From assembly GCA_000004985.1 (NCBI GenBank), contig GG738925.1: a stretch of 64,000 nt of DNA. One strand, written 5' to 3'. Each line of letters opens with the position of its first letter. Position 1 is the first letter of the stretch. The notes beneath the pieces are model-generated. The model worked only from the letters and a program-made list of their open reading frames with translations. It ran no database searches and was not told the origin of the DNA. The position numbers and the translations under genes are program-made. Source of the DNA: Naegleria gruberi (lineage: Eukaryota). Shown one piece after another: positions 5,509 through 61,518 of this stretch.

Positions 5509-5608
5509 ACCAAAATAAATATTATAATTGGAAATAACAAATGGAACGTTGCTTTTAATTAAAATTGCCAAACCCCATTTTATCAAAATTTCATGGCTCG
5601 CCACGTTA

Positions 5609-5679
5609 CCGTCTCGGGAGGAATCGAACCTCCGTCAATGGATTCAAAGTCCACTATGCTACCATTACACCACGAGACG
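5609..5679 (-). tRNA. tRNA-Gln: tRNA-Gln (anticodon UUG)
   Basis: Minus-strand sequence CGTCTCG-TG-GTGTAATGGTAGCAT-A-GTGGA-CTTTGAA-TCCAT-TGAC-GGAGG-TTCGATT-CCTCC-CGAGACG-G folds as a cloverleaf. It has a 7-bp acceptor stem, a TTCGATT T-loop and the anticodon loop CTTTGAA. It closely resembles eukaryotic tRNA-Gln(UUG). Confidence 0.85.
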
Positions 5680-6755
5680 AGCACATTCATGAAAAATGAT
5701 AAATACATAGATTAAGTATAATTAGATTTAAGGTTTTTAACTAACTATCATTAACACTAAGCAATATTACTAGCTTCTTTCCCAACACAAAATGTCAGCA
5801 AACTCGGTAGACCCCTTGGAAAAACAACACATGTAGAACAAGAACAACCCAGTAAAGAACCCAAATTAGATACAACAACAATAGACTCTTTCACGTGGGT
5901 AATGGGAAGTGATTCTTCAGAATTGTTCGATCATTTCGACGCAATAGAAAACGAGTTAATGCATTTGAACTCTTTTTCTTCTGATATTGTTGTAGTTCCC
6001 TATCAATTCTATTTCTTGGAAAGAATGTTTGATATTTCAACAATTCTACCCTAGATCAAACTCTAAATCATTTTTGGCTCTGCTTATATCTAACTTGTGG
6101 TTTCTACTGACAATATAATCAATGTTTTTCCAAAGCAAGCTCTAGTTGTATCATTTGGACTGTGTGTATTAGAAGCTTGAATTTTTTGTAACCTGTAAAT
6201 TCGAGTAATATCAACACCTCCAGTTTCTCCTGCTCCAACGTGGAATGCTCTAAATTTAATCATTCATTCCTTTTATATCAAGAATAGTAACTCTCTTCTT
6301 TTGACACCAATGGGAAAGAAGAGCCAAAATGTTGTCTAAACGAGTCTCTTTTGTCAATAGCGTTGCCTTACTCAACAAATCATAAACAATTCGGAAAATA
6401 ATAATAGTATCTAATGGAGAGATAGGTGCCCTTACATTTAGAATGATTCTTGACCTGCTTAACCCAAAAGTTGACTGTACAATTCTTAATGATTGAAATT
6501 CCTTGAGTACCCAAATCAATATTGTGGAGAGTTTAATAGATTTTATTAAGATCAGATTGATAAAATATTATGATCTTAAAGATTATCAGGAATGGTTGCA
6601 TCATTAACCTTTAGACCTAAATCAAAATTAGCAAGAAATTCATAAAAATTAACATTGTTAGCAATAATCAGATGCAAATTTTAGTTATCTTTACAAATTC
6701 CCAATACCTACTAGAATCGGTAAACCAATTTTTATAATATTTATTTTAAAAAAAA

Positions 6756-7220: not shown

Positions 7221-9654
7221 TTACAAGACGGAATCATTTATTAGAGATACTTTCAATGAGTCATGATGCTCAAATCTATAAATTGAACAGAATTGGTCAT
7301 CAATTTCAACAAAATTATTTTCATCCTTTTTTAGCATGATATTTCCAATCGACATTTCATCTCCAAGTTGGAGCACATTACTTTCCTCTTCTCTATTCTT
7401 TTGCAATCTTTTTTGAATGACATCTTTCAATTGATTCAATCCAATACTTTTTGGAATGGAAAGTCTAGTAGTTGGTGATTGCGTGCCAGTTGTTGTTACA
7501 AATGTCAAGAATACATTCACGGTTGGCTCTATGAATAATTCCTTCAAAATGTTTTTATCCTCTTCCTTAACTTGTTCAAATGTAGCAACAAGCGCTGTAT
7601 TATTCTCGTAATCTGATTTTTCCAAAGTTTCTGTTTCCATTTTAACTTCAAATTTTGGAATAATTTCATTTTCCTCTTTTTTCACAATAGGAGGTGGAAC
7701 ATTCATGTTAGGAAGAGACGTTTTTGCATCCTCTCTACTAGTACTGGTTACCATTGGTGGTGAATATGCTTGAGGAATACCAGATGCTACATGTACATTT
7801 CCAGGCAATGCTGGACCTGTTGCCACAATGGATGCCACACGAATTGGGGAAGGATTTGGAGAGTTTTGCAAATGTTCTTGAGTGTAAATCCTAGGTGAAT
7901 GTATCACATCTTCTCTGCCTGATGAACTAGTTCTATGTACATTACTACCATTACTGCTGTTGCTGTATGGATGATATCTGTGTGAAGAAAGTGGAGGTGC
8001 ACCATTTTCAACTCTTGCTGCGTTTTCATGCTTATTTTGACCATTGTTGAATGCATGCAATGGACTATTAGAATAATTTCTATTAACATTATTTGAAGTA
8101 TTATTTACAGTCTGCATTGCATTATTGGAAGGATTTGATCCAATCGCATAGGATGGAGGTGCAGTTCCCATCATTTCCATAATGGATGGAACAGATGTAT
8201 TAGTACCAGTGCCATTTCTAGGAGATTTTGGAGAAGTGGTTGCATGGGGATGTTGCATTGGTGAAGATCTCACAAATGGGTCATGCAAAGATGGTTGCAC
8301 CATACCTCCCCTGCTAGCAGCTCCTACATTATTACTCCCTCCACTACTTGTACTATTCGGTCCATTTAAATATTGAGAATTTTCATTGGATGCATATGGA
8401 TGGTAGTGATGAGATTTTCTATATGAAGATGATGAAGAATTTACATGTGTTGGTGATACAGGAGGTGAACGAGAATGACTTTGATAATGAGGAGGTGGTG
8501 GAGGTGCATTATGATGTGGAGAATAAGATGATGAATAATGTGCATGCATTGATGATCCATCATGTACAACATATGTATAATGTGGTGATGGTGGAGGAGG
8601 AGGTTGACTTTGCATGTCGTTATGATAGTACTTTACTCTGCCACTACTACCATTACTGTATTCTGCTTCATACTGTTTAGCATGATGCATGTCGACATGA
8701 TGATGATGTGAATGAACATGCATTCTAGATCCATCATGGTGATGGATGTTTCCTGCAGATGATGAAGGATAACCATGATGATGAGATGCATATTGTGCAT
8801 GATGCATGGTGCTGATAGTATTAGTATTACTAGTAGGATTAGTATTGAGTGATGGCAACACCCGAGATGCATGCGACACATGTGTATCACCAACACTACC
8901 TAGATGTCCATGAGGTGAAGGTGGAAGAGGTTGAGAAAGTGGACTATTCTCTTGTGTTGTTGTTGTTGCTCCCTTAGTTGTTGTTACATTATTCTTCCTT
9001 TTAACCTTGTTGATAGATAAACCAGTGACCTGAACATGTTCACATGTAATGAAAATGAAAATAATGAGAGATAGCAAGTTGACATGCAATTAATTTGATG
9101 TGCATTGTTGGAATACTTTTTTAGCAATTAAAACTTACATATTTGTATTTCTATTTAAAATCATGATTAGTTTTTGATATTAAAATTAAAAACTTACCTT
9201 TGCATAACAATTCTTACAAACACCATCTCCAATTCTAATTTCTGGTACATGTCTAAAGCATCCCTTATACTGTTCAATATTTGATTCGTTGATTGTATAG
9301 CTGATGTACTTATTTCCTGTTCACAATGTTCATTAGATCAGTGACACATGTCAAAGTATTAAAAGAGGTGATCCTGTCAGAAAATTAAGCGCTGTAAAAA
9401 CTTACCCGTGTCAGCTTTACCACAAATGATGCATGACTTGTGTTCTACCTGCTTGGCTTGAGTTTTTGCCATATGGTTCTTCATGGGATTTCTTTCTTGT
9501 GGTGTTGAATAAATATTCTGTTCCATAGTATTTTGTTGTGTTTCCATTGTGGGCCTTGAGATGGTATCAACCTCATTCAAATGTCTATGATACGAAGGAA
9601 CTGGACGAGTGGAGTTGGACAAAGTATTAGGATAGGAAGCAACACTGAATGATG
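7221..9654 (-). CDS. Multi-exon gene: Cys-rich zinc-finger-like N-terminal exons, a long His/Pro/Ser/Asn-rich low-complexity region and a C-terminal PB1/ubiquitin-like-looking domain. Exons complement(join(7221..9029,9198..9316,9406..>9654)); the 5' end runs into the assembly gap.
   Basis: Exon ending ...HKSCIICGKADTG|GTAAGT (donor at 9405). An 89-nt intron leads to a 119-nt exon encoding NKYISYTINESNIEQYKGCFRHVPEIRIGDGVCKNCYAK|GTAAGT. A 168-nt intron ending CATGTTCAG then joins in frame to VTGLSINKVKRK... (the body of ORF 7221..9089, whose annotated N-terminus is intronic). Motif C-x2-C-x24-C-x2-H-x10-C-x2-C. Confidence 0.55.
9030..9197 (-). other. intron (168 nt; may contain a micro-exon)
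   Basis: GTAAGT donor after ...CYAK. Acceptor CATGTTCAG|GTCACTGG. Phase 0 on both sides. A second GTAAGT at about 9131..9136 sits inside the interval. Confidence 0.45.
9317..9405 (-). other. intron (89 nt)
   Basis: GTAAGT donor after ACG G. Acceptor ...GTGAACAG. Frame preserved (G|GA = Gly). Confidence 0.55.
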
Positions 9655-12933: not shown

Positions 12934-15082
12934 GTGATGACCATGAGTGAAGAAAATCAACCTCAATCATCATCACGCTGCTCTTCCCCGACTTGTTCCC
13001 TTAATGATTCAGCATCCTCCTCAATAACAATGGCAACAGTATCATCGGTGGTGACTAAGAGTGATCTGATTTTGAATATTGCTGTTGGGAATAATTTTGG
13101 AGAAGAAGAAGAAGAGCGAGCAAGTGTTGTACAGAATAACTATTATTCAACTCCCTTACATACACATCGAGAAAGTGGGTTGATATCGAGTGCAGTTCCC
13201 TTCACTACTTCACCTCAACATTGTTCATCATCAACATCGATTAAGAGAATGGTTCAGATCAATATTAGTTCGGAGGTTACATTGGGACAAATGAAGAGGT
13301 GTCTCACGAATGTTATGGCTTGTGATATTCATGCTGTATTTGTGAGAGTCCTGTGTTCGAGATGTGAAAATTCATATACACTTCTTGGTGAGACCAATAA
13401 GCTCTATCTTACTGATCAATATTCGGAAAAAACAAAACTCTCATTCAGTAAGGGAGTTGAAATTGAATATAATTTTGAAATGTTGAATTCTATAAGATTG
13501 GAGTTGTATGGTTTTGCAGCAGTTACTTTGAGATCATCCATTGATTATAGTGCATCATATAGTGAGGACGCCAAGTTTATTGGTTTTTCAAGAGATATTG
13601 AACTGATTCATATTGTGAATGGTAAACAATCAAAAATTGAACTGTACTCTGGGAGAGAGACACTGATATCGAGTTTAAATTTACAAAGCGATCTCTACTA
13701 TGAGATTGGTAACAATCAAGAATTGAGAGATTTGATAGAATCAACCAAACGATGTGACCTTGCCGAGTTGGAGACATTATTGACAGAAGTGCCACCAACC
13801 ATTTTCACGGAAACAAACATGATCACTTTCAAATGTAGAGCTATGGGATTGGATAGGAAAGATATATTCGCTCTCAGTGACCCTTTTATTGTGATTTTGA
13901 ATGATGAAAAGGAAATTTTCAGGAGTGAAGTTATTAAGGTAAGTTATTTCTAAAGTTTATTATGTGAAATAATTTCTATTTTTTAAAATTTATAATATTT
14001 AGAATATGCTCGATCCTGAATGGAATAGTTTTTCGATATCTTCATCCAAGCTTTGTGAAAATGACTATAACAAACAATTGAAAGTGAGATGCTATGATTG
14101 GGATTTAATATCTAGTAATGACCTCATTGGAGAGTTTTACTTTACTATTCTCCAAGTACTCAATGGAAATAAGCTCTATGAAATTATAGAGCCAAACCTT
14201 GCCAGAAAGAAAAAGGGATACAAACACTCTGGCATCTTTCAATTTTTACATGTGACAGAGTTTATGGGCAATGAGGAGAGTAAAAATCCAGAAAGAATAA
14301 TCTATGAAAAGATGATATGTTTAAAGAAGAATAAGGAGCTACTCTTCATGGATTATATAGAAGATGGATTCAATCTCTCTCTACACTTTGCAATTAGTTT
14401 CAGTAAGGAAAATTCTTCATTACATTTTCAAGGTAACAAGAATACCTATGAAAGAGTTTTGAAAACCTTTGGAAGAGTATGCGAGTGTTATTGTGATACT
14501 GAATTTTCCATGTATGGATATTCAGCAATCCAAAGAACAGCAAGTTCTCCTCAACAACAGCCATTCTTTACCTTAGACGACATGTATATAAATTCAATGA
14601 AATTTACAGGATACGAGAGAGCAATTAATACCTACCGAACAGGTTTGCAAAATATTGATTTTGATGAATTATCAAATGTGAGAAATCCAAAAACTAATCT
14701 CAATTTTAGAAATGATGATTTCTATCACTTGATTAATCATGTTTCGAACAATGTGGAAGAAAATGAGAAAACCTACAAGGTTCTTGTTATCATGATTAAT
14801 GGAGATGATATTGAGCTACAAAGAACTGTTGATGCACTTGTCGATTGCAGTTCTAAACCCATATCAATAATAATACTAGGAGTTGGATCCTGTTCCTTCT
14901 CCTCCTGTAAAATTCTATTCAGCAATAACCAATTTCAACATGGCTCAACTGGAAAGAAACCAATTCGGTGCAATGTTAAATTTGTTAGACTTCAAGATGT
15001 AAATGAGAATGCCTATTCGAAAATACTTGCAGATATTCCAAAGCAATTTGTAGAATATTATCAAATTAATAAAGTTTTCTGA
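12934..15082 (+). CDS. Copine-like protein (C2 domain(s) plus vWA-like domain). Exons join(12934..13938,14003..15082).
   Basis: C2B-like segment LSDPFIVILNDEKEIFRSEVIK|NMLDPEWNSF...LKVRCYDWDLISSNDLIGEF spans the junction. Donor AAG|GTAAGT at 13939 and acceptor ...ATATTTAG at 14002 give a 64-nt, phase-0 intron. The C-terminal vWA-like region is KVLVIMINGDDIELQRTVDALVDCSSKPISIIILGVG. Confidence 0.8.
13939..14002 (+). other. intron (64 nt) of copine-like gene
   Basis: GTAAGT...TTTAG. Joins two long ORFs in frame within a C2 domain. Confidence 0.8.
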
Positions 15083-15166
15083 AAGGCTCGATTGCTTATT
15101 CGAAACATTTCACTCTCACATCCAATAAAGGCTTTGCTAATTGGCGCCAAAATAACGATTAAAAAA

Positions 15167-18096
15167 ATGTCGCAAGAACAAACTCTCGAACAACAAGAAA
15201 CAGTGGAGGAAGATTCTCATCTTGTGGTCGATTTGGATTCGATAGAGCATACTGTCATTGGTTTGGCATTGGAAGGTAGAGAGGAACATCCACTTGCTAA
15301 ATTCCAAACACTCTCTGTTGAGGAATTATATAAACAACACTTTCAATTGAATGGAAGTAATACAACATCAATGAAGGCTATTTTCGACAATGGTCTCGAT
15401 GATGAACAAGTTAAACAACAACGACAAAAATTCGGGGAGAATGATATTTATACAAAATTAGTGGAAAAGTCTAGTTCGAAAATTTCATTCTGGAAGGTTT
15501 TCATTTCCGAAGTGAGAGAACCAATGATTTTAATGTTGTTTGTGGTTGGAATATTATATTTCATTTGGGATTCATTGTGGAATGCTATTGTTGTGTTTTC
15601 CTGCATTATCTTGATGGTTTTGGTCGAGGTTGGAAATGAATACAGATCAAAGAGAGGCGTGATGGAGCTCAAGTCTTCTTATTTCATGTCAAAGACTTGT
15701 ACTGTAAGGAGAAATGGTATTCTTTCTAATATTTCAGTTTCTGATCTTGTTCCAGGAGATGTTATTAACTTTAATGGAGGACAAATTCTTCCAGCTGATG
15801 TGAGACTTTATAATTATGAAAATAGACAGATTAGTGTTCAAGTGGATGAATCTATTTTGACTGGTGAATCAATGGTTTGCAATAAGCATGGTAACAACAT
15901 CTCTTCGAATGAAGACATGTCAAAGTGTGAAAACATTCTACTGACAGGAACCTCAATCAAGAAAGGAAAAGGTTTCGGTATAGTAGTTAATGTTGGTTGT
16001 GAAAATACTGGACTCGGTAATATTCTCAAGCTATTAGGTAAAAGTATGGAAAAGGATAAGAAAACTGAACTCCAAAAAACTATGAAAGAACTTGCCAAGT
16101 ATTTGACAATCATATCTATTGTGATGGCTTCCATTATTGTCATTGTAGGTTGGATTAGAGGATTTGACTGGAAAAAGATGCTACTTTCAGGACTCAGTAT
16201 TATGTTTGCCACTATTCCTGAGGAATTACCAATCATCATTAAGAGCGTTCTTGCTTTGGGCTCTCTTAATCTCTCAAAAAGAGTCTTCTCATTAAGAAAC
16301 TTCATGTTCCAGAATCTTTGGCCAATATTACACATATAATAACAGATAAGACAGGTACAATTACTAAAAATTGTCTCCAACTCATTCAAGTCAATCAGGT
16401 TGATAAGGATGGAAATGTAGATCTTGTCTACGATACAAAGAAACAAATGGAAAAGAATAATTGGATTATAGAATGGTTGCTTTCTGGTTATACTGAAGTT
16501 GGTGCGGATTTAGCTGATCCATTTGAAAAGAGTGTTTCTGAAGAGTTAGAAAGATGTTCTAACCAATCGTGGAAAGGATTTTTGAAAAACAGAACTGAAA
16601 ACTCTTACAGCATTGTAGATGAGATGCCATTCGATCATACCAAAGGGTTTGCTACCCTTATTCTTTCTTCTGGAGAATCTAAGTTTGTTACTCATAAGGG
16701 AATTCCAGAGAGAATGATCACTAATTGTTTGTTCTACCAAGTATCTAATGAATCAGAACAAGTACCAATGACTGAAGAGGTAAGAGAACGTATCCTATCG
16801 TTTTTGGAGGTTGAAACAACGAAAGGAATGAGAGTAATTTGTCTATGCAAAGACAATGAACAATCACAGATGGTTTTTGTGTCATTGCTTTCATTCACAG
16901 ACCCTCTTAGAAGTGGTGTCAAGGAAGCAATTTCTGATTGCAAAAATGCAGGAATTAAGGTAATAATTGTGAGTGGTGATCACACAAACACAGTAATATC
17001 AGCAGCTAGGGAATGTGGACTATTGAGCAGTGTAAAACAAGATTTATTAGTTGAAGAGCATGAGCATTCAGAAGATGAAGACATTGAATTAGAAGCTTCC
17101 CTTCTCTCCAATAGACAATCTGTATGTATTGAAGGAAAGGATGTCAACGATAAAATGGATGTTGACTCTGTTTGTGCCATTTCGAGAGCAACACCTCAAA
17201 ATAAGTACGACTTGGTTGAAATGTTAAAAGAACAGAAGGGATATAAGGTTCTCGTCTCAGGTGATGGTATGAATGATGTTCCAGCAATTTCCAATGCAAC
17301 TGTTGGAATTGCTATGAGATCTGGAGTTGATTTGGCGAAAGAGGCAGCTGAAATCATCATAATGGATGATAATTTTGCTACCATTGTGGCTGGCATTAGA
17401 GAAGGAAGAAGATTGTATGCAAATTTGAGAAAATCTTTGCAATTCTACTTGTCATGCAAAGTCACCCTTGTTGTATTGTTTGTTACAAACATGATTGTTG
17501 GTGGTTCGAGTGCTATTCCATTTATTCCTCTCGAGCCAATGCAAATTATTCTTCTAGAACTATTTAGTGATATTGGAGCAGCCACTACCTTTGTGTTGGA
17601 AGAGGAAGAGGAAACCTTAATGAAAAATCCACCAAGGACCGAGAAGAATTTTGTTGACAAATCCTTTATTTATCACATAATAATTGGCTCCATATCTCTC
17701 TTTGCTACAGTATTCTCATCTTACATGTTAGGAGTGTTTGTGCTATCTCCAATGTATGGTCTTGAAGGTTCCTCTCACCAAGAATATGCTCAAAGTATGA
17801 CAATGATTGCTTGGCTGATTGGTCACGTCTTTTTAGGTTACAATTTCAGAACTATATCTACCCCTCTAACGATTCACGGTATTTTCTCAAACACTATGAT
17901 GAATGTTTGGTTTGCTGTTGTGTTGATTTCAGTTTTGCTACTCCAATTTGTTCCAATCCTCTACACTGCTCTGAGGTTGCAACCTTTGGGATTTATTGGG
18001 CATATTTCTATTTGGCTCCTCATTCTCATATTTATTGGATGGCAGGAAGCACTGAAATGGATAACAAGGTTATTGAAAATTAAACAAACTCTTTAA
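15167..18096 (+). CDS. P-type cation-transporting ATPase (type II, Ca-ATPase-like). The reading frame is broken by an apparent 1-nt deletion in an A5 run at 16276..16280.
   Basis: N-terminal cation-ATPase region, TGES, PADVRL, DKTGTIT, DPLR, VSGDGMNDVPA and a C-terminal TM bundle. The frame-1 ORF (to 16339) and the frame-2 ORF (from 16270) together read LALGSLNLSK / KSLLIKKLHVPESLANITHIITDKTGT. This aligns gap-free to SERCA [37 protein letters not shown] if one extra A is present. ATG at 15167 in an A-rich context. Confidence 0.8.
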
Positions 18097-18488: not shown

Positions 18489-19052
18489 ATGATGAGGAAA
18501 TCAACAATCAAAACATCCACACCATCAGCTCTGAAACGTAATAATCTCTCCTCGCTCACACTCTCCTCTCTATATATTTGTTTCAACATTCGTCTATTAG
18601 ATTGGTTTGGTATGCATGGAATTGTCTTGTATCCTTTTGTATTATTTGCTCTCCCAAAGGATTGTCTGTACAAGGAATTAATTCAACACGAATTGATCCA
18701 TGCAAGGCAGATTAAACGAGAAGGCTTCTTCTCCTTCTACTTTTCCTATGCGAAGGAATTGATGATGAATATTGGAAGGGAATTATTGAAAGCCTTTGCA
18801 AAACAAGAACCAAAGAAGAGAAAGTCATCAAGATCAACAGCTGTTAGTATTGAAAGTAGTGGTGGTGGATTTTCTCTTGGGAAGATGATGAGAAATATTT
18901 CCTATGAAGATGAAGCCTACGGCTTGGAACATGTATCATTGTATGATGAAGAGAAGAAATATTTGAAGGATAGATTTGATATTGATATGGATGATTTGAT
19001 GACAGAGGAGGAATATAATTCGGGCGATGTTTATAGTAGTTGTGATGAATAA
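18489..19052 (+). CDS. Small protein with HExxH zinc-metallopeptidase-like motif resembling bacterial DUF4157 (the real start is probably at an internal Met)
   Basis: GMHGIVLYPFVLFALPKDCLYKELIQHELIHARQ. A hydrophobic stretch followed by HELxHxxQ matches the DUF4157 signature (LLAHELTHVVQQ). Acidic C-terminal tail. Confidence 0.45.
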   Translation: MMRKSTIKTSTPSALKRNNLSSLTLSSLYICFNIRLLDWFGMHGIVLYPFVLFALPKDCLYKELIQHELIHARQIKREGFFSFYFSYAKELMMNIGRELLKAFAKQEPKKRKSSRSTAVSIESSGGGFSLGKMMRNISYEDEAYGLEHVSLYDEEKKYLKDRFDIDMDDLMTEEEYNSGDVYSSCDE

Positions 19053-19310: not shown

Positions 19311-20030
19311 ATGATATGCCATCAAAACCTTTCAAAAGATGAAAATATAAATACTGGAAAATCAACCAACAAAAAAACCATAGAAATGGACCATCATACA
19401 AATCATCATCATTATTCGGGACAAGGCTTTAATCATAATGAAGGGAATAATCATCCCTACTATCAACCTAGAAATCCAATGAATAGAGCTAAAAGTCATG
19501 AAGATGTTTGTTTGCAGAGAATGGTTGGATTGAGAGAACAACATTCCAAGTCAACTCAACAATTAATGACTCAACTCAATTTGGCTAAGGAATTGGTTAA
19601 GGAAAGAGTGGTTATAAAAGAAAGTGCTAAGAGAAGAGAATCATCATCAGATGAGAATGTCACCCAAAACTATTCAGCCTCAGCTGATGAAGTTCAGCAA
19701 ATGAGAAGACAAAATCGATTGGGAAAAACATCATTGACAGCTATGAAATATCTCAGTAGTGTCGATCACAGGAGAAGCAGTAGTTTATTGGGAGTGAATA
19801 CAATTATTCACAAAAAGAAACCAGTCAACTGCTCTGAAAATATCCAATATTGTCAAAATGTTGAAGAGGACATCCATGGAGTGCCATTAGAAGATGAATC
19901 TAGTCAACCACCCACACAAAAAACAATTGTGGTAAACATTAATGAAAAGCTAAAAACTGGAGCAAAAAGAAGTGCAACTCAATCCAATCTCCTACACCAA
20001 CATTCATCGTCTGAATTGAAAAAGATTTAA
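19311..20030 (+). CDS. hypothetical basic/His-rich protein (239 aa)
   Basis: ORF with ATG start. No recognised domain. Confidence 0.35.
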   Translation: MICHQNLSKDENINTGKSTNKKTIEMDHHTNHHHYSGQGFNHNEGNNHPYYQPRNPMNRAKSHEDVCLQRMVGLREQHSKSTQQLMTQLNLAKELVKERVVIKESAKRRESSSDENVTQNYSASADEVQQMRRQNRLGKTSLTAMKYLSSVDHRRSSSLLGVNTIIHKKKPVNCSENIQYCQNVEEDIHGVPLEDESSQPPTQKTIVVNINEKLKTGAKRSATQSNLLHQHSSSELKKI

Positions 20031-41814: not shown

Positions 41815-43917
41815 ATGAAAGAAATACCTATTTCAAACGACAGGATGTCACTTCAAAAAAAAATGGTCAACAAGGTTTGCCTATTAATTCTGCTTGCTGT
41901 GTCTCTGTTGCTCTTTGCTTCAGTCACTTGTGAGAATATTGTCTATTCTACTACAACCTACATGGATGGAACGCTCGTTCCTTCATTCGAAACTAATGTT
42001 GAAACTAACCTATTCAACTCTACCAATCCAAACTCCAGATCCCTCCAAGAAGATTGTACATTGTGTCCAGTTGGTGGTGATTGCACATGTGCAGGTACTT
42101 GTCCAGTTTCTTCATATGATTACAAGGACTTTTTCATCAAGACAACTTGTCCAAATGGTTTCTACTTGACTTCCTTGAGTCTTCAATGTAGAACAAGTGT
42201 TATTGGTGATTCAAAAGTTTTTATTCTTTCTCCAAGTGAATTTGATATTTACAAGGCAGATGATACGAAACTTCCAGCTATTCGATTCAACACTAATAAT
42301 TGTATTGATTATCGTTTTAACATTACAGAAGATCAAACTCTTGTTTACTATTGGTTAGATTTAAGACCTGCTGTGTATACAGCAAAGTGGTGGTTTAAAT
42401 TTGTTGGAACTTGCAACAAAATTCAAGCTGGTCAACCTGTCAGAATGGATGTTCAGCCGTCAGTTGTTACCTTAACAAACACAACATTTTTTGACATTTC
42501 AACAACTCTATACGATAGAAACAATATCATCGCTGGTAATGCAGAAGGAGAAATGCGTCTTGTTGTTGATCCAGCTCAAAATCAAGGTTTCCAATTAACA
42601 AGTAGCTCACCAGTTTTGTGGGGAAACTCAACTTTTAAATTAATGAAATTCAAAACAGCTCTTCCACAAGTTGTGTACCAAGTGTTCTATACGAATGGTA
42701 ACTATTCCATTAACGAAACAAGAACCATGAATATGACAGGAGATCAAGTTACATTCATTTGTAACATTCCAAAATATATGATTATTAATCAAGTAGTGAA
42801 TGTTGATTTCGCTCTTGTGGATAGTCAAAATCAAGTAGTCCAATCTGTGAGTTCTAATTTTGCTAAACTTGGTTCTCCACAACTTGGTTCAGATTGCATG
42901 TATTATTTAACAACTGAAGGTATCTTTCGATATGTTTCACCAGCAGAAAGAGATATTCCATTAACAAGAGGAAGAGGCTCAATGACTTTGAGAGCTCCAA
43001 TGACTGTAAGAAGTAATAGTTTTTACATTGATCTCTATTACATGCTACGTACGAAAACTTATTTCACATTCGAAACAACTGGACCTCCATATGATGCACA
43101 AATCACTATTATTGATGGAGAGTTTGGAAGTGGAACAGATACTGCATTCTCAGTTTCAATTTATGATGGAAAAATGGAATATAGTCCCTCACTTGTTAAG
43201 GCATGTTCAGATGTTGTGAAAATTGTTTCAGATCCTCCATTAGAAGGGTTTCCAGTGGAAAGTAAGGCAGTGGAGGGAGTTGCTTTGTTTAATACCATGT
43301 TAATTAGTGATCCTAGAAATATCAAGTTGCAAATACTTGTCAATAATCAAGCATTGACAAGTAAGAATGTTAGAGTTGGAGATAATGTCAAGTTAGCTCT
43401 TTCAGTTGACAAGTATTTGATATCACCAGGTGATTCATTCTATGGAAATATCTCAATTTATGACATGTTTGATAACTTTTTAAACATGTCTACTGGAAAT
43501 GCATTCCTTAACATTACCTATAATGGAAATCAATTCATGAAAATTAATTCCAAAGTTGTTAATGGATTTTGCATGTTTTCACCAAGTTCAATTCCAAAAA
43601 TTTACACTTCTCGAGTTTACATTCAAGCTGGATTCTACAGTCAATTCAACCAATTATTCCTATCAGAAACATTTGAAATGCAAGTTTACAATTTGTCACC
43701 TTACCCTACTCCAAAACCAACCATTAGTCCAATGATGAGTAAAAAGGCAGAACACTCAAGTGGTGGTAATAATCCAACAAATCCATCTAAACCTTTGAAT
43801 TCTGTTCAAATTCCAGCCATCAAATCCAATAATCAAAGAATTAACAATGCCAATTCTGTTAACATTGGTTCTGTAATTCTTCTTGTGTTCTTCCTCTTTT
43901 TGATAAGCATGCATTAA
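41815..43917 (+). CDS. Ser/Thr/Asn-rich surface/secreted protein with N-terminal signal peptide, Cys-rich module and C-terminal hydrophobic anchor
   Basis: MVNKVCLLILLAVSLLLFASVTC signal-like segment. CTLCPVGGDCTCAGTCPVSSYDY Cys cluster. Many N-x-S/T sites. C-terminal IGSVILLVFFLFLISMH (GPI-like or TM). Confidence 0.55.
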   Translation: MKEIPISNDRMSLQKKMVNKVCLLILLAVSLLLFASVTCENIVYSTTTYMDGTLVPSFETNVETNLFNSTNPNSRSLQEDCTLCPVGGDCTCAGTCPVSSYDYKDFFIKTTCPNGFYLTSLSLQCRTSVIGDSKVFILSPSEFDIYKADDTKLPAIRFNTNNCIDYRFNITEDQTLVYYWLDLRPAVYTAKWWFKFVGTCNKIQAGQPVRMDVQPSVVTLTNTTFFDISTTLYDRNNIIAGNAEGEMRLVVDPAQNQGFQLTSSSPVLWGNSTFKLMKFKTALPQVVYQVFYTNGNYSINETRTMNMTGDQVTFICNIPKYMIINQVVNVDFALVDSQNQVVQSVSSNFAKLGSPQLGSDCMYYLTTEGIFRYVSPAERDIPLTRGRGSMTLRAPMTVRSNSFYIDLYYMLRTKTYFTFETTGPPYDAQITIIDGEFGSGTDTAFSVSIYDGKMEYSPSLVKACSDVVKIVSDPPLEGFPVESKAVEGVALFNTMLISDPRNIKLQILVNNQALTSKNVRVGDNVKLALSVDKYLISPGDSFYGNISIYDMFDNFLNMSTGNAFLNITYNGNQFMKINSKVVNGFCMFSPSSIPKIYTSRVYIQAGFYSQFNQLFLSETFEMQVYNLSPYPTPKPTISPMMSKKAEHSSGGNNPTNPSKPLNSVQIPAIKSNNQRINNANSVNIGSVILLVFFLFLISMH

Positions 43918-45538: not shown

Positions 45539-47497
45539 ATGCCGTGTGATACCAATAATGACGCCTCTGACACCGTTGCCTCCGCACCAGCATCATTCAT
45601 GTACGAAGAAATAACATGTAATGAGCTTCTACTGCTTCATTCATATAATTCACAAATTAAAAAGTGGATAAAAACTGACGCTCATGAAAATACTCATGAA
45701 TTTTATATGGAACGGGAAGATTCCGATGATGATGATGATGATGAAGATGATGAAGATTATGTAGAGGATAATCAAGTTGATGATGAAGAAAAGGTTGATA
45801 ATGAAAAGAATTTATTCGAAAGAAGAATGATATTTAATTCTGTGAGGGGTAGAACTACAGAACTTGGATATTTGGATCCGTGTGATGATTATCACATCAG
45901 AGAATATAATGATGATTGGGGACGTGTGGAGGAAGTTGAGGAAATTAATATTGGACTATTTTATAATCACCTTTCGAATGAAAATTTTGTAGAGGAGAGG
46001 GAAAAGTTTACCTATGAATGGAAAGATAACATTCTCTGTTTTAGAATAATGCCATATGATTTTGACTCTTTGGGAAAATATGACATGATGAAAGTTATTG
46101 GTGAGATTGAGAATGAAAATTATGCGAAACAATTTGTTGAGGAACAGATTGAATATACGAAATCACCAGAAACAAAGGTCAATTATATGGAATTTGTGAA
46201 TAATCATGCCATTGTTTCAGTATTTGATTATCTTGATACATGTTTCTTGTTGAAAACATGCTCAAAAGTTTCTTCGGAATGGCACAAAATGTTGTTTTAC
46301 AATTCACATATTCAAAATCATATTTTCAAAGGTAGATTACTGGATTTATTCGATGGACAATTTGACCATTTGAGTCGCTTGAATGAGTTTTATAATTTGA
46401 ATTGGTTGGAAACTTATCTGATGAGTGGTGCGTTCGTTTTTGAAATGTTTCAAGAGGGATTGTTAGGTCAATTGGAACACTTTGCTCATTTAAATGCAGT
46501 TGAAGTAGAGCAATTCTTTTACATTGTTCTCAAATTAGATCCTCTTCCTCATCTGGTTGATGATTTGAAGGATGATCATCCACTGATTAATAGATTGAAA
46601 CTCTTACCCCCAAAGAGAGTACTGTTCAGTGTTAATACTCTACCAGAGGTAAAGAGAATGGTATTCAAAAGAGGATTTTTAACACATCTTTTGAGTGTGG
46701 AAGATAATTGTGATCCTGAAGTAGTGATGGAAAAAATTCTTATGGCCAAATGTGTAATTCCAATTCAAGATTGCGAATTTTCAGTAGATTTCAAGAAGGG
46801 AATTTCTTTATATGACGAATTTTTGAAAGAACTTTCTTCAAAATTATTATCATTTAGAATACCATCAAAAAAGACAGATTCAGAATTGGATTGGGCTGCC
46901 AATTGTCTCTGTGAAATGAGAGAAAAGGCTAGCTATTTCATTCACAATATTATTCCCGCCCATCCATTTACCAAGCTTTGTGTGGATGATGATATTCTCA
47001 TTGGACTCCATCTACTCTTACTCGATAACATTTATTCTAAAATTGACTTTCTAACAAACATTCCAATCCTCAACTTTTTGGAATTATTGGAAAATAGAAA
47101 GAGGAATGAATTGACCAATATCAAATCCCTCCTTCCTGAAAAATTCCAATCCAACCTATTTGAAATGATGTTACAAGAACCATCACCATATCAATTTACA
47201 TCTGATTCTCTCACTCCATTTAATCAACCATCAAATTTATTAGAATTTTTAACAGAACATGTTATTGAACCGAGTGAAATTTATCAAGAAAATAGAAAAT
47301 TCTCTGAATGGATTGATAGGGATATTGAGGAATATTTGAAATTCATTAAAACATTCCACACCAAGTCAATTACACCACCTAAACATGTTGACATGTTATT
47401 TCACTTTCACATGTTACATCCAAACAATTACATGCCAGATTGTTTGAGAATTGCAAGATCAATCAAGAATCACAAATTTAACTTTATTAAAAATTAA
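45539..47497 (+). CDS. F-box-like domain protein with poly-Asp/Glu tract (652 aa)
   Basis: Poly-A ATG context. Internal F-box-like segment HAIVSVFDYLDTCFLLKTCSKVSSEWHKML. DDDDDDEDDED tract. Confidence 0.5.
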   Translation: MPCDTNNDASDTVASAPASFMYEEITCNELLLLHSYNSQIKKWIKTDAHENTHEFYMEREDSDDDDDDEDDEDYVEDNQVDDEEKVDNEKNLFERRMIFNSVRGRTTELGYLDPCDDYHIREYNDDWGRVEEVEEINIGLFYNHLSNENFVEEREKFTYEWKDNILCFRIMPYDFDSLGKYDMMKVIGEIENENYAKQFVEEQIEYTKSPETKVNYMEFVNNHAIVSVFDYLDTCFLLKTCSKVSSEWHKMLFYNSHIQNHIFKGRLLDLFDGQFDHLSRLNEFYNLNWLETYLMSGAFVFEMFQEGLLGQLEHFAHLNAVEVEQFFYIVLKLDPLPHLVDDLKDDHPLINRLKLLPPKRVLFSVNTLPEVKRMVFKRGFLTHLLSVEDNCDPEVVMEKILMAKCVIPIQDCEFSVDFKKGISLYDEFLKELSSKLLSFRIPSKKTDSELDWAANCLCEMREKASYFIHNIIPAHPFTKLCVDDDILIGLHLLLLDNIYSKIDFLTNIPILNFLELLENRKRNELTNIKSLLPEKFQSNLFEMMLQEPSPYQFTSDSLTPFNQPSNLLEFLTEHVIEPSEIYQENRKFSEWIDRDIEEYLKFIKTFHTKSITPPKHVDMLFHFHMLHPNNYMPDCLRIARSIKNHKFNFIKN

Positions 47498-57054: not shown

Positions 57055-60000
57055 CTACTCGTTTAGTATTCTGTAGGAGAGCTTTGGGAAGAGAACAGTT
57101 TCCAAAAACCATGAGCTCAAAACAATTTCAATGAAAAGAATGGAGAAGAGAGAGAATGAAAGTAGAATGAGGGTTCCACACAGCAACGTTCCTACCATAC
57201 CAAAGATGTCTGAACCTCTGATAACTACCGATTTGAATTCACTCCTAGGGCACAAAATAACAGCATTATTAATACCTTTGGAAGGTTTGTCAAGGATTGG
57301 AATAACAAAGAAAGGTTTTGGAGCAGGAGTGATACGTTTGTTAGATTGTTGCACTTGTGAAATGTCATAATAATTTGAGGAAATGAAACATTTTGTTGAG
57401 GCGGATCCTAAGGCATAAAGACCATACTTATCAAATTCAGCTGAATATTCTGATGTTTGAGGATAATAATTGTTTTGATTGAATTGATAGATAACATCAC
57501 CTGCCTGTGAGCAACAAACCAAGTGATCACTATAACTCAATGCCAACACAAGGAAAGTTACAACCGATACAACAGCAATAAAGAGTAAAATTAGAGCTGG
57601 TATAAGAATTTGAAGTTGTCTTGCTCTTCTACTCTTGGTTCTGGATCCAAACAAGCTGAACCAAAATGTAAGTCCAAAACAAAATGGATCATTGTCTCGA
57701 AGTGTTTCAAATGTTGTGAGTTTCCTCTTCTTAATCTTTTCATAAAACTTGCAAGAAAATCCAATCATTAGAATGATGGCAACAAAACAAACCAAAGCAG
57801 TTATTGAAATAAGAGCATAGGTAGTAAATGGAAGGAATGTAAGCTCATTTGAAATTTTACCATCAGCCACAATAAAAGATATAATTTCGTGATGATAACT
57901 CTCATCTTGATTCCACACAGCCAAATACAAAGAGCTATTGACTGACTTTTGGTTTGCTGCCAATCCTGAAATATTGTTATAAGAAGAATAGTTATGAATA
58001 GAATTCAATGGGAATGTTAAGGAGTATTTGATCATAAAGAGTGAGGCAGACTCTGTGGCTGATTTAGAGTATTTGTATACTTCCTTTTCTAATTTTGAAT
58101 CTTTTGGTAGTATTTCATCAACATTCTCCACAGATAATTTTTCGAAAGCACATGTCAAAGAGAGATGGTCAAAGTTTGTTAAATTAGTTATATCCCAAAA
58201 GGTAAGTTCAATACGGAAGTTAGTTGTGGCCAAGTAATCATTTGGATTCAAAGTTGTTTCCTTAATTAAGCCTTCATTTTCTGCGGCTTTTTCACTAAAG
58301 TTCTTATAAAAAGCTCTCAAAATTTCATCAAGGTCAAAAGAGAAAAAGAATGGAATTCCTCTCTTTCTCTTTTTGGTTGAGCTTAAGGACTTGGAGATTT
58401 GTAATATTGAATCAGTAGTACCATTAACTCCTGTAGAATTATCGTTACCAACTAGCAAAACCGGATTTAATCCATCATAACGTTTGGTTAGACTAACTAC
58501 TGATGGGAAGGAGTTATATGAAACAACTGTGAGATCAATGTATGTTGAATTACATGTATTCCTGGTATTATTCCCTTCATAAATCGACTGATAAATAATT
58601 CTATCCAATGAACTAGTATAATAGTTATATTGAGGTACAGTGATAAGTAGATTGGAAAATGCATCGGCAACCAAATTACCTTCCTCAATGAAATTAATAG
58701 CTGTTTCATTGTATCCTACTATATTTGGAATAACATAAGGTTCCCTTCTATAAATTATGTGAGTTCCTCCATTATTCGTGCTGGCTACATAATTCAATGT
58801 AAGAAGCATGTCTGTATAGAATGTTGAATTGGGAAAATTGAAGGAATTGTCAAAGGATGTATCGTAGTCATCAGTATAGGGAGCTTCTCCAACTTTTGAA
58901 TAAAATAATAATGGATTATCTGAGGTGTTTCTAATCAAAACTACAGAAGTATGGATGACATGATATGGAAGAATATAATCTGAGCTTGATATTTTGGCTC
59001 CTGTGCTCAATAAATCAAAATCAGAAGAGTACATCTTTGAATTCAAGGTGTCAGTGTAGATTTGAGGGGTATCTATCCAGAAATCAACTTTGACACTTGA
59101 TGTATATTCTACATCATCTTTTTCAACTTTGTAAATAAATCCAAAATACCACTCATACTCATATATTGTGTTGACAAGCTCAATATGGCCACTAATCTCA
59201 TAACAGTCTCCTGTTTGCTTGAAATCATAGAGCTGGGTACTTGGAAATAAGCTCTTTCTAATATATACTTCCATGGAAGTAATTGGGACATGGTCGAGTA
59301 ATTTAAAGGAGTATCTTAAAAGATTGCCCAAAAATTTTGTACTATTGGAAGCTCTTTCAATTTTGAGTTTTGTTGAATAATGAATAGTGTTTGGCTCCTT
59401 CTTAACATATGTGACTGAATACTGTGTATTTCCATAACTTAAGAGAATTCTTTCATCATCAGTCAAATAGGATCTGACCTTGTAGTAACACTTAAATGGA
59501 CAAGCCTTTCCGTAGACAGCTATGTAGTAAGCTTGTTTTGTGTTCGACACATCCTTGTACAACCAAGCATTCTTCTTTTCTGTATCCAATTTAAAGGATG
59601 TAGGAAGTGTAAAATAGGATGAAGATGGTAATTTTGTCATTTGCCAATCATAAGGATAATTTGGTGTTTGAGAAGAGCTACTTTGGGCAGATGAAATCAA
59701 AATGTTGACAGAGTTTGCGTAAATGTCTGTAGTTTCAAATAAAACATTCAGAATGGCACTATCAGAATATGAAGTAACGTAATAATAACGCCATTGATAG
59801 AGCTGCAAATCTGAATCCACAATTTGGTCACTGTTAATGGCAGTGTTAATCATATTGGTAATCTTTGAATATACTGTGTAGGATATACTATCACTTGTCT
59901 GGGAAAAGGAGGTAAACACAATTGAGAATGTGTTAGATATACTCGATTCAAATTTAGAGGAGAAATATGGGATTGAAAGAGTATATTGGTATTGAGCTGA

Positions 60001-61518
60001 AACTACAATCAACTCCTCAGGTAATACCTTTCTACTATATAAATCTTGACCATTGTTTGATATCTTGATATTAAATCCTATCTTGTCTGAAAATAGATAG
60101 TTTATCATTACTATAGGATTTGAAAAAGTATCTACATCAGATGGTGATATTGTTATTTTGAACTTGTAACTATCTAGAGAGTAGTGGGATATTCTATCGG
60201 CAAGATTAGAACCAAGTGTTAATACTCTAGTAATAGCATTTGAAAAAATATTTAGAGAAACTGATCCAGATAATGAAGTAGAAGTATCAATAGACTGAGA
60301 AGCAGTGTGAGGGCTCAGTGAATAACTCAAAGTTGTTGAGGAAACAGTGGTATTATCAATTGTGAAATACATCCTCAAGTAAAGGTAACTCAAATATGAA
60401 GGAGAAACAGTAACATTAATAGTTCTATTATTATTATCGTCGTAATAAGAATCTATTATAATATTATCAAATGTGCATGAATAAACTAAATTGCTTTTAA
60501 TGCAATAAGTAGGATAAACAGGACATTTTAAAAACCCATTGTTATATGTACATGAGCTATTTGACAAAAATGTATATTCATAAGGAAATATAATTGAAAG
60601 ATTTTGTAATGTCAAATGAGATAATGAAGAAAATTGAAAATTAAAAGTAAAACTAGACGTAGAATCTGGTCCATTATTTGCTACTAGTAAATCAAAGAAA
60701 TATATATCCTTTGTGGCAAGTGTTACATCAATATTCCAATTACTACCATTTCTTGAAGATATGGCATAATTTGTTATATTTACATTATTACTAACATAAC
60801 AGTAATTCAATAATATTTCTGTTATACAAATATTACCTCCAGCACTAATGTAATTTGGTTTAAATATTGTTGTTGATGATTTTGTAAGTTGATTCAAAAT
60901 ATCATACTTTCTCGATAAAAATGAAAATTGTGAACATCCTCCACAAGAACATCCTCCTGATACAACGTTTGTGTCTGTCATATCGTAATTATTCAAACTA
61001 ATTGTCATATTTCCAGTTTGGGAAACATCATTCAGTTTGCATTTATCATACTGATAATAAACTACTCCATGCATGGAATAAAGCTTATTTGATGATTGAA
61101 TTGGATTTGAAAATGTAATTTCTCCATCATTCCAATTATTGCTGCCTGAACATGTGTATAAACTTTGATCACAAATCTTACAAGTTGATGGAAGTGCATT
61201 TGTATTAGAGTATGAAAGAAGAACGTAATATTGAGAAAATCCATTTGGGCATCTATATGTACTACCTTCAACACCATATGGGAATATAACACCACAAAGA
61301 AGGAAAATCAAACAAATCATAATACAATTTTTTAAATCCAATTTAGACTTTTTAAATATTTCCACACCATCAAAAAGAAATTCTGTAATATAATCAAACT
61401 CTCGCACCACTAAACTATTGTCAAATAATAATAAATGTTTGTTTTGAAGTCGGTGCTCCATTTCCGTTCGTTTTGTTAATGGTTGTAGTTGTGAGGCAAC
61501 AACACCATTCTCATGCAT
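57055..61518 (-). CDS. Giant (1487-aa) Ser/Thr/Asn/Tyr-rich membrane glycoprotein: N-terminal signal-anchor, very large extracellular region and three C-terminal TM helices
   Basis: ATG in a poly-A context. Hydrophobic IMICLIFLLCGVIFPYGV near the N-terminus. Dozens of N-x-S/T sites. C-terminal TM segments (YALISITALVCFVAIILMIGF, ILIPALILLFIAVVSVVTFLVLAL, MVGTLLCGTLILLSFSLFSILFIEIVL). No recognised domain. Confidence 0.55.
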   Translation of the reverse strand: MHENGVVASQLQPLTKRTEMEHRLQNKHLLLFDNSLVVREFDYITEFLFDGVEIFKKSKLDLKNCIMICLIFLLCGVIFPYGVEGSTYRCPNGFSQYYVLLSYSNTNALPSTCKICDQSLYTCSGSNNWNDGEITFSNPIQSSNKLYSMHGVVYYQYDKCKLNDVSQTGNMTISLNNYDMTDTNVVSGGCSCGGCSQFSFLSRKYDILNQLTKSSTTIFKPNYISAGGNICITEILLNYCYVSNNVNITNYAISSRNGSNWNIDVTLATKDIYFFDLLVANNGPDSTSSFTFNFQFSSLSHLTLQNLSIIFPYEYTFLSNSSCTYNNGFLKCPVYPTYCIKSNLVYSCTFDNIIIDSYYDDNNNRTINVTVSPSYLSYLYLRMYFTIDNTTVSSTTLSYSLSPHTASQSIDTSTSLSGSVSLNIFSNAITRVLTLGSNLADRISHYSLDSYKFKITISPSDVDTFSNPIVMINYLFSDKIGFNIKISNNGQDLYSRKVLPEELIVVSAQYQYTLSIPYFSSKFESSISNTFSIVFTSFSQTSDSISYTVYSKITNMINTAINSDQIVDSDLQLYQWRYYYVTSYSDSAILNVLFETTDIYANSVNILISSAQSSSSQTPNYPYDWQMTKLPSSSYFTLPTSFKLDTEKKNAWLYKDVSNTKQAYYIAVYGKACPFKCYYKVRSYLTDDERILLSYGNTQYSVTYVKKEPNTIHYSTKLKIERASNSTKFLGNLLRYSFKLLDHVPITSMEVYIRKSLFPSTQLYDFKQTGDCYEISGHIELVNTIYEYEWYFGFIYKVEKDDVEYTSSVKVDFWIDTPQIYTDTLNSKMYSSDFDLLSTGAKISSSDYILPYHVIHTSVVLIRNTSDNPLLFYSKVGEAPYTDDYDTSFDNSFNFPNSTFYTDMLLTLNYVASTNNGGTHIIYRREPYVIPNIVGYNETAINFIEEGNLVADAFSNLLITVPQYNYYTSSLDRIIYQSIYEGNNTRNTCNSTYIDLTVVSYNSFPSVVSLTKRYDGLNPVLLVGNDNSTGVNGTTDSILQISKSLSSTKKRKRGIPFFFSFDLDEILRAFYKNFSEKAAENEGLIKETTLNPNDYLATTNFRIELTFWDITNLTNFDHLSLTCAFEKLSVENVDEILPKDSKLEKEVYKYSKSATESASLFMIKYSLTFPLNSIHNYSSYNNISGLAANQKSVNSSLYLAVWNQDESYHHEIISFIVADGKISNELTFLPFTTYALISITALVCFVAIILMIGFSCKFYEKIKKRKLTTFETLRDNDPFCFGLTFWFSLFGSRTKSRRARQLQILIPALILLFIAVVSVVTFLVLALSYSDHLVCCSQAGDVIYQFNQNNYYPQTSEYSAEFDKYGLYALGSASTKCFISSNYYDISQVQQSNKRITPAPKPFFVIPILDKPSKGINNAVILCPRSEFKSVVIRGSDIFGMVGTLLCGTLILLSFSLFSILFIEIVLSSWFLETVLFPKLSYRILNE

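Follow-up and report, generated by a model that had tools for sequence, protein, structure and literature searches.

A virus- or bacteria-type HExxH zincin-like protein of family phrog_15610 in Naegleria gruberi, probably acquired horizontally and domesticated

We analyzed a 64,000-nucleotide stretch of Naegleria gruberi DNA (contig GG738925.1 of assembly GCA_000004985.1; hereafter, the window), in which a small open reading frame (ORF) at 18489-19052 encodes a protein with an HExxH motif. The initial annotation had described this protein as bacterial-type, DUF4157-like and possibly acquired horizontally, with an acidic tail and a position between a P-type ATPase and a His-rich protein. We find an ATG-start ORF of 187 amino acids plus stop exactly where it had been placed. 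The peptide on which the description was built, GIVLYPFVLFALPKDCLYKELIQHELIHARQ, is residues 44-74 of the ORF, with the HELIH codons at 18687-18701; Asp and Glu abound in its last 38 residues. Since HExxH turns up three times in the long ORFs of the window, the motif by itself is weak evidence. The ORF is nevertheless far beyond chance, because it has highly significant homologues.

The gene has the neighbours that had been named for it. A P-type ATPase, whose last ORF piece carries the Pfam domains Cation_ATPase_C and Hydrolase, ends 392 nt upstream, and 258 nt downstream begins an ORF of 239 amino acids with a His/Asn-rich N-terminus, for which we found neither a Pfam match nor an identical protein in the collection searched. 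The ATPase is broken into four ORF pieces. At its first junction, a canonical 64-nt GTAAGT...TAG intron restores the open frame; the remaining two junctions each allow several short GT..AG solutions, and the second junction of the gene contains an in-frame stop (15080-15082). Other ORFs nearby in the window carry F-box, BTB/POZ, Ser/Thr kinase and CDP-alcohol phosphatidyltransferase domains (Pfam), and the base composition is even along the whole 64 kb. The flanks, which had been called AT-rich, do have less GC than the ORF (0.31 upstream and 0.26 downstream against 0.36), but only modestly so when compared with the window (0.33). To score codon usage, we used a model trained on 20 long window ORFs. 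The ORF scored -1.016 log-likelihood per codon, inside the host range (-0.94 ± 0.07; -1.025 to -0.795 for the 20 ORFs), and non-eukaryotic members of its family averaged -1.43 under the same model. Its GC content at third codon positions (GC3) was slightly higher (0.356) than that of the 20 ORFs (0.27 ± 0.04). Because of the eukaryotic neighbours, the ATPase intron, the even composition and the host-like codons, we conclude that the DNA around the ORF is genuinely eukaryotic and that the gene is no contaminant.

Searching Pfam, NCBIfam and PDB with the window protein alone, we found nothing relevant. A word-indexed protein search gave no match with the window protein, and the family profile recovered only 6 proteins there. 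Performing an exhaustive phmmer search against 1.84 billion representative proteins, we obtained 151 matches at E ≤ 1e-3, the top two at E 1.6e-34 and 5e-25. The best match (P0001, 235 amino acids) is XP_044543730.1, a hypothetical protein of Naegleria lovaniensis, the species to which the PYSW accession belongs (PMC6125883). It is encoded on a 309-kb scaffold among ankyrin/zf-MYND, amidohydrolase and DUF4460 genes, and it is 41% identical to the window protein over 179 amino acids (E 5e-41). Beyond the gene itself, the two Naegleria loci showed no local synteny; their ATPases are about 21% identical and are not clear orthologues. Two metagenomic proteins, P0002 (118 amino acids) and P0154 (194 amino acids), are as close as the N. 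lovaniensis protein, while the remaining matches are about 100-120 amino acids long and align to query residues 28-97.

The phrog_15610 profile matched the window protein with E 3.1e-4 (21.8 bits), aligning residues 38-95 to profile positions 10-64 of 105. The same profile matched 81 of 93 relatives, the best with E 3.2e-21. On these profile matches, we assign the window protein to phrog_15610, a family separate from DUF4157. No NCBIfam model matched ten bacterial, archaeal and phage members of this family, the PADLOC defence models gave no match, and tblastn with the window protein and the family consensus found none among the INPHARED phages.

Table 1. Features of the gene and of its surroundings in the window (residues are those of the window protein)
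Feature	Position	Strand	Basis
Complete single-exon coding sequence, 187 amino acids; mini HExxH zincin-like protein, phrog_15610 member	18489..19052	+	ORF, homologues, AlphaFold2 model
N-terminal extension, residues 1-25; lineage-specific, Ser/Thr/Lys-rich, poorly conserved in Naegleria-type proteins	18489..18563	+	Alignment
Three-stranded beta-sheet region, residues 29-53, including GIVLYPFVLF	18573..18647	+	DSSP strands 29-31, 44-47, 50-53
Active-site helix, residues 62-78, H67-E68-L-I-H71-A-R-Q74	18672..18722	+	Conservation, AlphaFold2 helix, alignment with DUF4157 HELxHVxQ helix
Second long helix, residues 79-104, signature G79-x3-F83-Y84-x2-Y87	18723..18800	+	Conservation; model helix 80-104
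Disordered basic/Ser-rich variable insert, Naegleria-type, residues 105-128	18801..18872	+	Low pLDDT; alignment
PKKRK, residues 108-112, inside the disordered insert	18810..18824	+
'Glutamate helix' motif Y139-E140-D-E142-A143-Y144	18903..18920	+	Conservation; model helix 138-146
C-terminal helices and acidic tail, residues 150-187	18936..19049	+	Alignments; helices 153-163, 173-177, 182-185
P-type ATPase, four ORF pieces (12934-13953, 14006-15082, 15092-16339, 16318-18096)	12934..18096	+	Pfam domains on last piece
First intron of the ATPase	13939..14002		Canonical GTAAGT...TAG
239-amino-acid ORF, His/Asn-rich N-terminus	19311..20030	+
tRNA-Gln(TTG)	5608..5680	-

We counted residue conservation in a 93-sequence family alignment, which yields the signature G(I/V)xLYPF(I/V)LF ... 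HE(L)xH(V)xQ(I/V)xRxGxxxFYxxY ... (Y/F)ExEAY. P49 of the sheet region is kept in 92 of the 93 members. In the active-site helix, H67 is invariant (93/93), and E68 (91), H71 (92) and Q74 (91) are nearly so. The following helix retains G79 in 91 members, F83 in 89, Y84 in 84 and Y87 in 89, and the glutamate helix keeps E140 in 88, E142 in 74 and A143 in 86. The start of the C-terminal part, LYDEEKKYLK, recurs across the family as 'PLTxEExxEL'. Most phage and bacterial members begin near query residue 28, and these compact proteins have no counterpart of the insert at residues 105-128, whose length varies among the four Naegleria-type proteins. In these four proteins the core is near-identical; their extras are the variable N-terminal extension, the basic Ser-rich insert and the acidic tail, and the terminal acidic stretch is peculiar to them. 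The PKKRK in the insert resembles a classical monopartite nuclear localisation signal; an Arg-rich stretch occupies the corresponding position in the N. lovaniensis orthologue.

Using AlphaFold2 with the family alignment, we obtained a model of the window protein with a predicted local distance difference test (pLDDT) score of 89.1 and a predicted template modelling (pTM) score of 0.81. The model has strands at 29-31, 44-47 and 50-53 and helices at 62-78 (with HExxH), 80-104, 130-135, 138-146 (with ExEAY) and 153-163. Its confidence is low only around residues 105-128, with pLDDT of about 64-65 for residues 111-130. The compact member P0017 gave the same topology at pLDDT 94.8. The predicted fold agrees with that of zincins, in which one edge strand of a mixed sheet runs above the active-site helix, and the HExxH sits in a helix, its two His and its Glu all conserved, as expected of a gluzincin. 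In gluzincins, the HExxH histidines and a Glu further along the chain hold the zinc (bioRxiv 10.1101/2020.07.07.192476). The nearly invariant E140 lies at the start of the later model helix 138-146, which would suit the role of third ligand. We predict H67 and H71 as zinc ligands, E68 as the catalytic Glu, by analogy with gluzincins E140 as the third ligand and, from the zincin fold matches, residues 29-53 as the region of the substrate-binding edge strand. Among the 93 members, Pfam Peptidase_M56 was matched by one, at E 0.048 only, and Peptidase_M48 was not among the 25 Pfam families listed; we do not count the family as M48 or M56.

We also mapped the distribution of the family, finding relatives in IMG/VR with a subgroup alignment and loci in GTDB species genomes with a back-translated motif DNA pattern. 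IMG/VR holds at least 499 tblastn-confirmed relatives. Most of their contigs measure 10-170 kb, and a GVMAG giant-virus bin contains one relative. More than 120 stretches of the GTDB species genomes have the motif pattern, and 77 of the first 80 loci contain a small ORF scoring 20-130 bits against the family hidden Markov model (HMM). The carriers include Prevotella, Muribaculaceae, Bacteroides, Alistipes, Bdellovibrionota, Acidobacteriota, Chloroflexota, Methylocystis, Planctomycetota and metagenome-assembled genomes (MAGs) of Woesearchaeota. The prokaryotic members most like the family HMM, with up to 130 bits, come from Bdellovibrionota (Bdellovibrionales and Bacteriovoracaceae; loci L136, L108, L119, L149 and L166), and L136 is the labelled non-eukaryotic sequence nearest to the window protein (58.5 bits). 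Three MAGs of DPANN archaea ('Candidatus Woesearchaeota'; L104, L124 and L161) have members with 106-121 bits, one of them on a 636-kb contig. Their Pfam-matched flanks look cellular, most clearly at L161 (aminoacyl-tRNA synthetase, GatB and DHODH), and also at L124 (SET and saccharopine dehydrogenase), so we rejected the idea that these loci are misbinned giant viruses.

Viral settings are varied. One phage-like contig carries DnaB, Toprim, PolA, RecA and sigma70 genes, and another carries Dam and RlaP. On a phage-like 107-kb metagenomic contig (L210), the member stands right after an ORF that we read as ThyX-like and near one that we read as PhoH-like; about 2 kb further downstream is a second, unrelated HExxH protein, 'LLHELAHQAGYMHHG', which is SprT-like in appearance (coordinates 6085-6450 and 8193-8798). 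The giant-virus-like context of another member includes DUF5899, DUF5764, DUF5832 and collagen genes; the three DUF families are linked to mimivirus-like viruses. Performing neighbour counts, we found no conserved gene neighbourhood among 134 bacterial neighbours, which fall into 109 Pfam families (the commonest, EamA, seen six times), or among 76 viral neighbours, which fall into 56 PHROGs with a few lysis genes. In summary, the family typically consists of solitary genes for 100-120 amino acids, which many phages carry, as do several phyla of bacteria, some MAGs of archaea and contigs of giant-virus-like character. Calling it bacterial-type was therefore right in that the family is overwhelmingly prokaryotic or viral, but too narrow, since homologues also occur on giant-virus-like and a few eukaryote-like contigs.

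Comparing the window gene with its N. lovaniensis orthologue, we find synonymous sites saturated (pS 0.72 overall and 0.79 in the core). Non-synonymous sites have diverged by 0.56 overall and by 0.28 within the core, and every signature residue is kept. Therefore, the gene has been under purifying selection since the two lineages split. In a neighbour-joining tree of 144 sequences and 94 columns, the four Naegleria-type proteins were monophyletic in 96 of 100 bootstraps. The phylogeny proposed as a check thus gives a firm Naegleria-type clade but does not fix its sister, which was P0139 in 32 of 100 bootstraps and otherwise various phage, giant-virus and bacterial sequences. These data fit a single old acquisition, for which phages, bacteria and giant viruses are all candidate donors.

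Taken together, we consider it likely that the window protein is a small, soluble, stand-alone gluzincin-type zincin-like protein of phrog_15610, which an ancestor of Naegleria acquired horizontally and has since domesticated. With a prokaryotic and viral family in eukaryotic DNA, the horizontal acquisition suspected earlier is the best reading of the locus. One copy would have entered the ancestor of the Naegleria lineage. Its domestication would show in the host-like codons, the eukaryotic flanks and the long purifying selection, and the protein would have gained the N-terminal extension, the basic disordered loop and the acidic tail on the way. A giant virus infecting Naegleria is known (PMC11043551), which would make a giant-virus route plausible. 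As for the mechanism, H67, H71 and E140 would hold the zinc and E68 would act as the general base that activates water, while the edge strand of the sheet would bind a peptide substrate, and Q74 with the FY/Y cluster would probably buttress the site. Zinc-dependent hydrolysis of peptide bonds would then be the most likely activity. As the genes of the family stand alone and their surroundings vary, we expect this activity to be self-contained, with no place in a multi-gene system.

It is also conceivable, although we regard it as unlikely, that the HExxH scaffold is kept without peptidase function, the protein instead serving as a metal-dependent regulator, as a chaperone or binding module, or as an amidase whose substrate is not a protein. 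Neither phrog_15610 nor DUF4157 has a known activity, and the core of about 100 amino acids is extremely small, with no obvious specificity domains. The closest structural analogues include the C-terminal effector domain of VgrG2b (6h56) and the metalloprotease domain of ArdC (6sna), and among such analogues are non-classical roles (anti-restriction for ArdC, effector for VgrG2b). A peptidase of gluzincin type remains our preferred reading.

Somewhat less probable still is a gene of eukaryotic ancestry, with no transfer into Naegleria; viruses, especially giant viruses, would have taken it from protist hosts, and it would have reached bacteria and phages secondarily. Some members do lie on eukaryote-like contigs. 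P0079 (169 amino acids; L005, 10001-10510), on a 537-kb AT-rich metagenomic contig (ENA ERZ25071330) with DUF285 repeat proteins, adjoins an anoctamin gene in exon-like pieces, and this contig appears to belong to an uncultured eukaryote, which would then be another carrier of the family. Another member (L208) sits among RING, MYND and LNS2 genes. P0139, the nearest candidate sister of the Naegleria clade, is of this eukaryote- or giant-virus-like kind, and the saturated synonymous sites make the Naegleria gene old. Against this, the bulk of the diversity that we found comes from viral contigs of phage size and from the cellular genomes of prokaryotes of many phyla. When we checked the sources of 29 distinct representatives, the only named eukaryote was N. 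lovaniensis. Scanning metagenomes with Naegleria-type motifs, we found only two further loci, of which one at least is phage-like. Finally, the eukaryotic proteins are longer derivatives of the compact core of about 100 amino acids. We hold to a probable acquisition by the Naegleria ancestor.

The proposal that the protein is a bona fide DUF4157/eCIS_core (PF13699) member with a toxin- or injection-system-related role is, in our view, improbable. DUF4157 is defined by its association with extracellular contractile injection system (eCIS) operons or by N-terminal fusion to toxin domains (PMC8213781). The check suggested for this membership, a PF13699 search, gave no match for the window protein even at E ≤ 10. 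PF13699 was weakly matched by 40 of the 93 family members (best E 3.4e-4), and any other Pfam family by at most 3. The family consensus reached 14.8 bits (E 0.033) over profile positions 56-77 of 79, which cover the HExxH helix only, and this is below the Pfam gathering threshold of 22 bits. We then retrieved 320 PF13699 proteins and aligned 38 of them. With hhalign, the family matched these true DUF4157 proteins at a probability of 71.9% (E 3.4e-5, 42 columns), placing 'AYTVG..VVF' of DUF4157 in register with 'GItLYPFIlF', and 'LLAHELtHVvQ' with 'li.HEliHV.Q'. Thus the DUF4157 arrangement that had been noticed is real as to strand, loop and xxHELxHxxQ helix, with a Gln three residues past the second His in both families. 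The match begins only after the segment in which DUF4157 has near-invariant G12, D14, F15, R19 and H21; this N-terminal FGxDFSxVRVH...A.AxT is missing from phrog_15610, and the additional conserved helices of phrog_15610 (GxxxFY and YExEAY) fall outside the DUF4157 model.

Structure searches add one point in favour of membership. In the BFVD fold search, the two best hits were uncharacterised phage proteins, and the third was a phage 'DUF4157 domain-containing protein' (TMt 0.77, root-mean-square deviation 2.7). The DUF4157 profile, however, also gives a weak and about equally good match to this segment in BepA, an M48 peptidase (E 0.008), so we take the shared strand-HExxH segment as a general gluzincin feature. 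We also asked whether VgrG2b, the best structural match, is itself a DUF4157 domain, and found no support for this, as the DUF4157 profile has no sequence match to 6h56. As for the proposed toxin or eCIS link, no eCIS, tail-tube, sheath or toxin families were among the most frequent families reported for the 134 bacterial and 76 viral neighbours. From the profile comparisons, the likeness to DUF4157 is in register but confined to a generic core, and phrog_15610 stands outside DUF4157, as a distant relative at best. A motif likeness of this kind is thus no sign of an association with toxins or injection systems.

That the ORF is spurious, or comes from a contaminating bacterial or viral contig, is hardly credible: most relatives are prokaryotic or viral and GC3 is slightly above that of neighbouring genes, but the 64-kb stretch is uniform, with eukaryotic genes on both sides and a canonical spliceosomal intron in one of them, the orthologue lies among Ank/zf-MYND and other eukaryotic genes in N. 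lovaniensis, and the gene has host-range codon usage and is under purifying selection.

Elsewhere in the window, the tRNA-Gln(TTG) gene lies between protein-coding genes and is the sole tRNA in the 64 kb. Many further long ORFs have no Pfam domain, for example those at 41815-43917, 45539-47497 and 57055-61518.

The probably domesticated phrog_15610 protein of Naegleria shows clearly that this genus, which includes the brain-eating amoeba, has kept a gene of viral or prokaryotic type under selection. What is new here is the eukaryotic, domesticated member, as the family itself is already catalogued as phrog_15610. The human host lacks genes of this sort, and they sometimes attract interest as markers or targets. 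The family is a very widespread mini-metalloprotease-like one, with no Pfam or NCBIfam model and no studied member; its members run into the hundreds and come from phages and giant viruses as well as from Bacteroidales of the gut and predatory bacteria. If about 100 amino acids do hold the full zincin catalytic set, the family would offer a convenient minimal model for metallopeptidase mechanism. We speculate that the PKKRK loop and the acidic tail refit the protein for a eukaryotic compartment or partner. A bolder extension, which we think unlikely, is that phrog_15610 forms a pan-domain clade, so far unrecognised, of gluzincins that are the smallest to be self-contained (about 100 amino acids), with a core akin to DUF4157 and M48/M56, and that it moves freely among phages, cells and giant viruses. 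In that case, the copy in Naegleria would be a protease of viral origin, domesticated and refitted by its PKKRK loop and acidic tail for a new, possibly nuclear role, such as SprT/Wss1-like protein clearing or an antiviral function.

Among known systems, phrog_15610 itself, labelled 'protease' (category other) in PHROGs v4, shares small size and the HExxH core with the window protein. It is a computational cluster of phage proteins of about 105 amino acids, whereas the window protein is eukaryotic and has 187, with its N-terminal extension, basic insert and acidic tail. DUF4157 shares a presumed zincin fold with phrog_15610; it occurs in eCIS operons and toxin fusions (PMC8213781), while phrog_15610 proteins are single-domain and solitary in varied contexts. 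VgrG2b (6h56) and ArdC (6sna) are 12-17% identical in sequence and are domains of larger multi-domain proteins, unlike the stand-alone phrog_15610 proteins. Also close are the minigluzincins proabylysin (4jiu), projannalysin (4jix) and selecase (4qhf), the minimal scaffold of M48 and M56 catalytic domains (bioRxiv 10.1101/2020.07.07.192476), together with the M48/M56 catalytic cores that they model, such as those of BepA and BlaR1.
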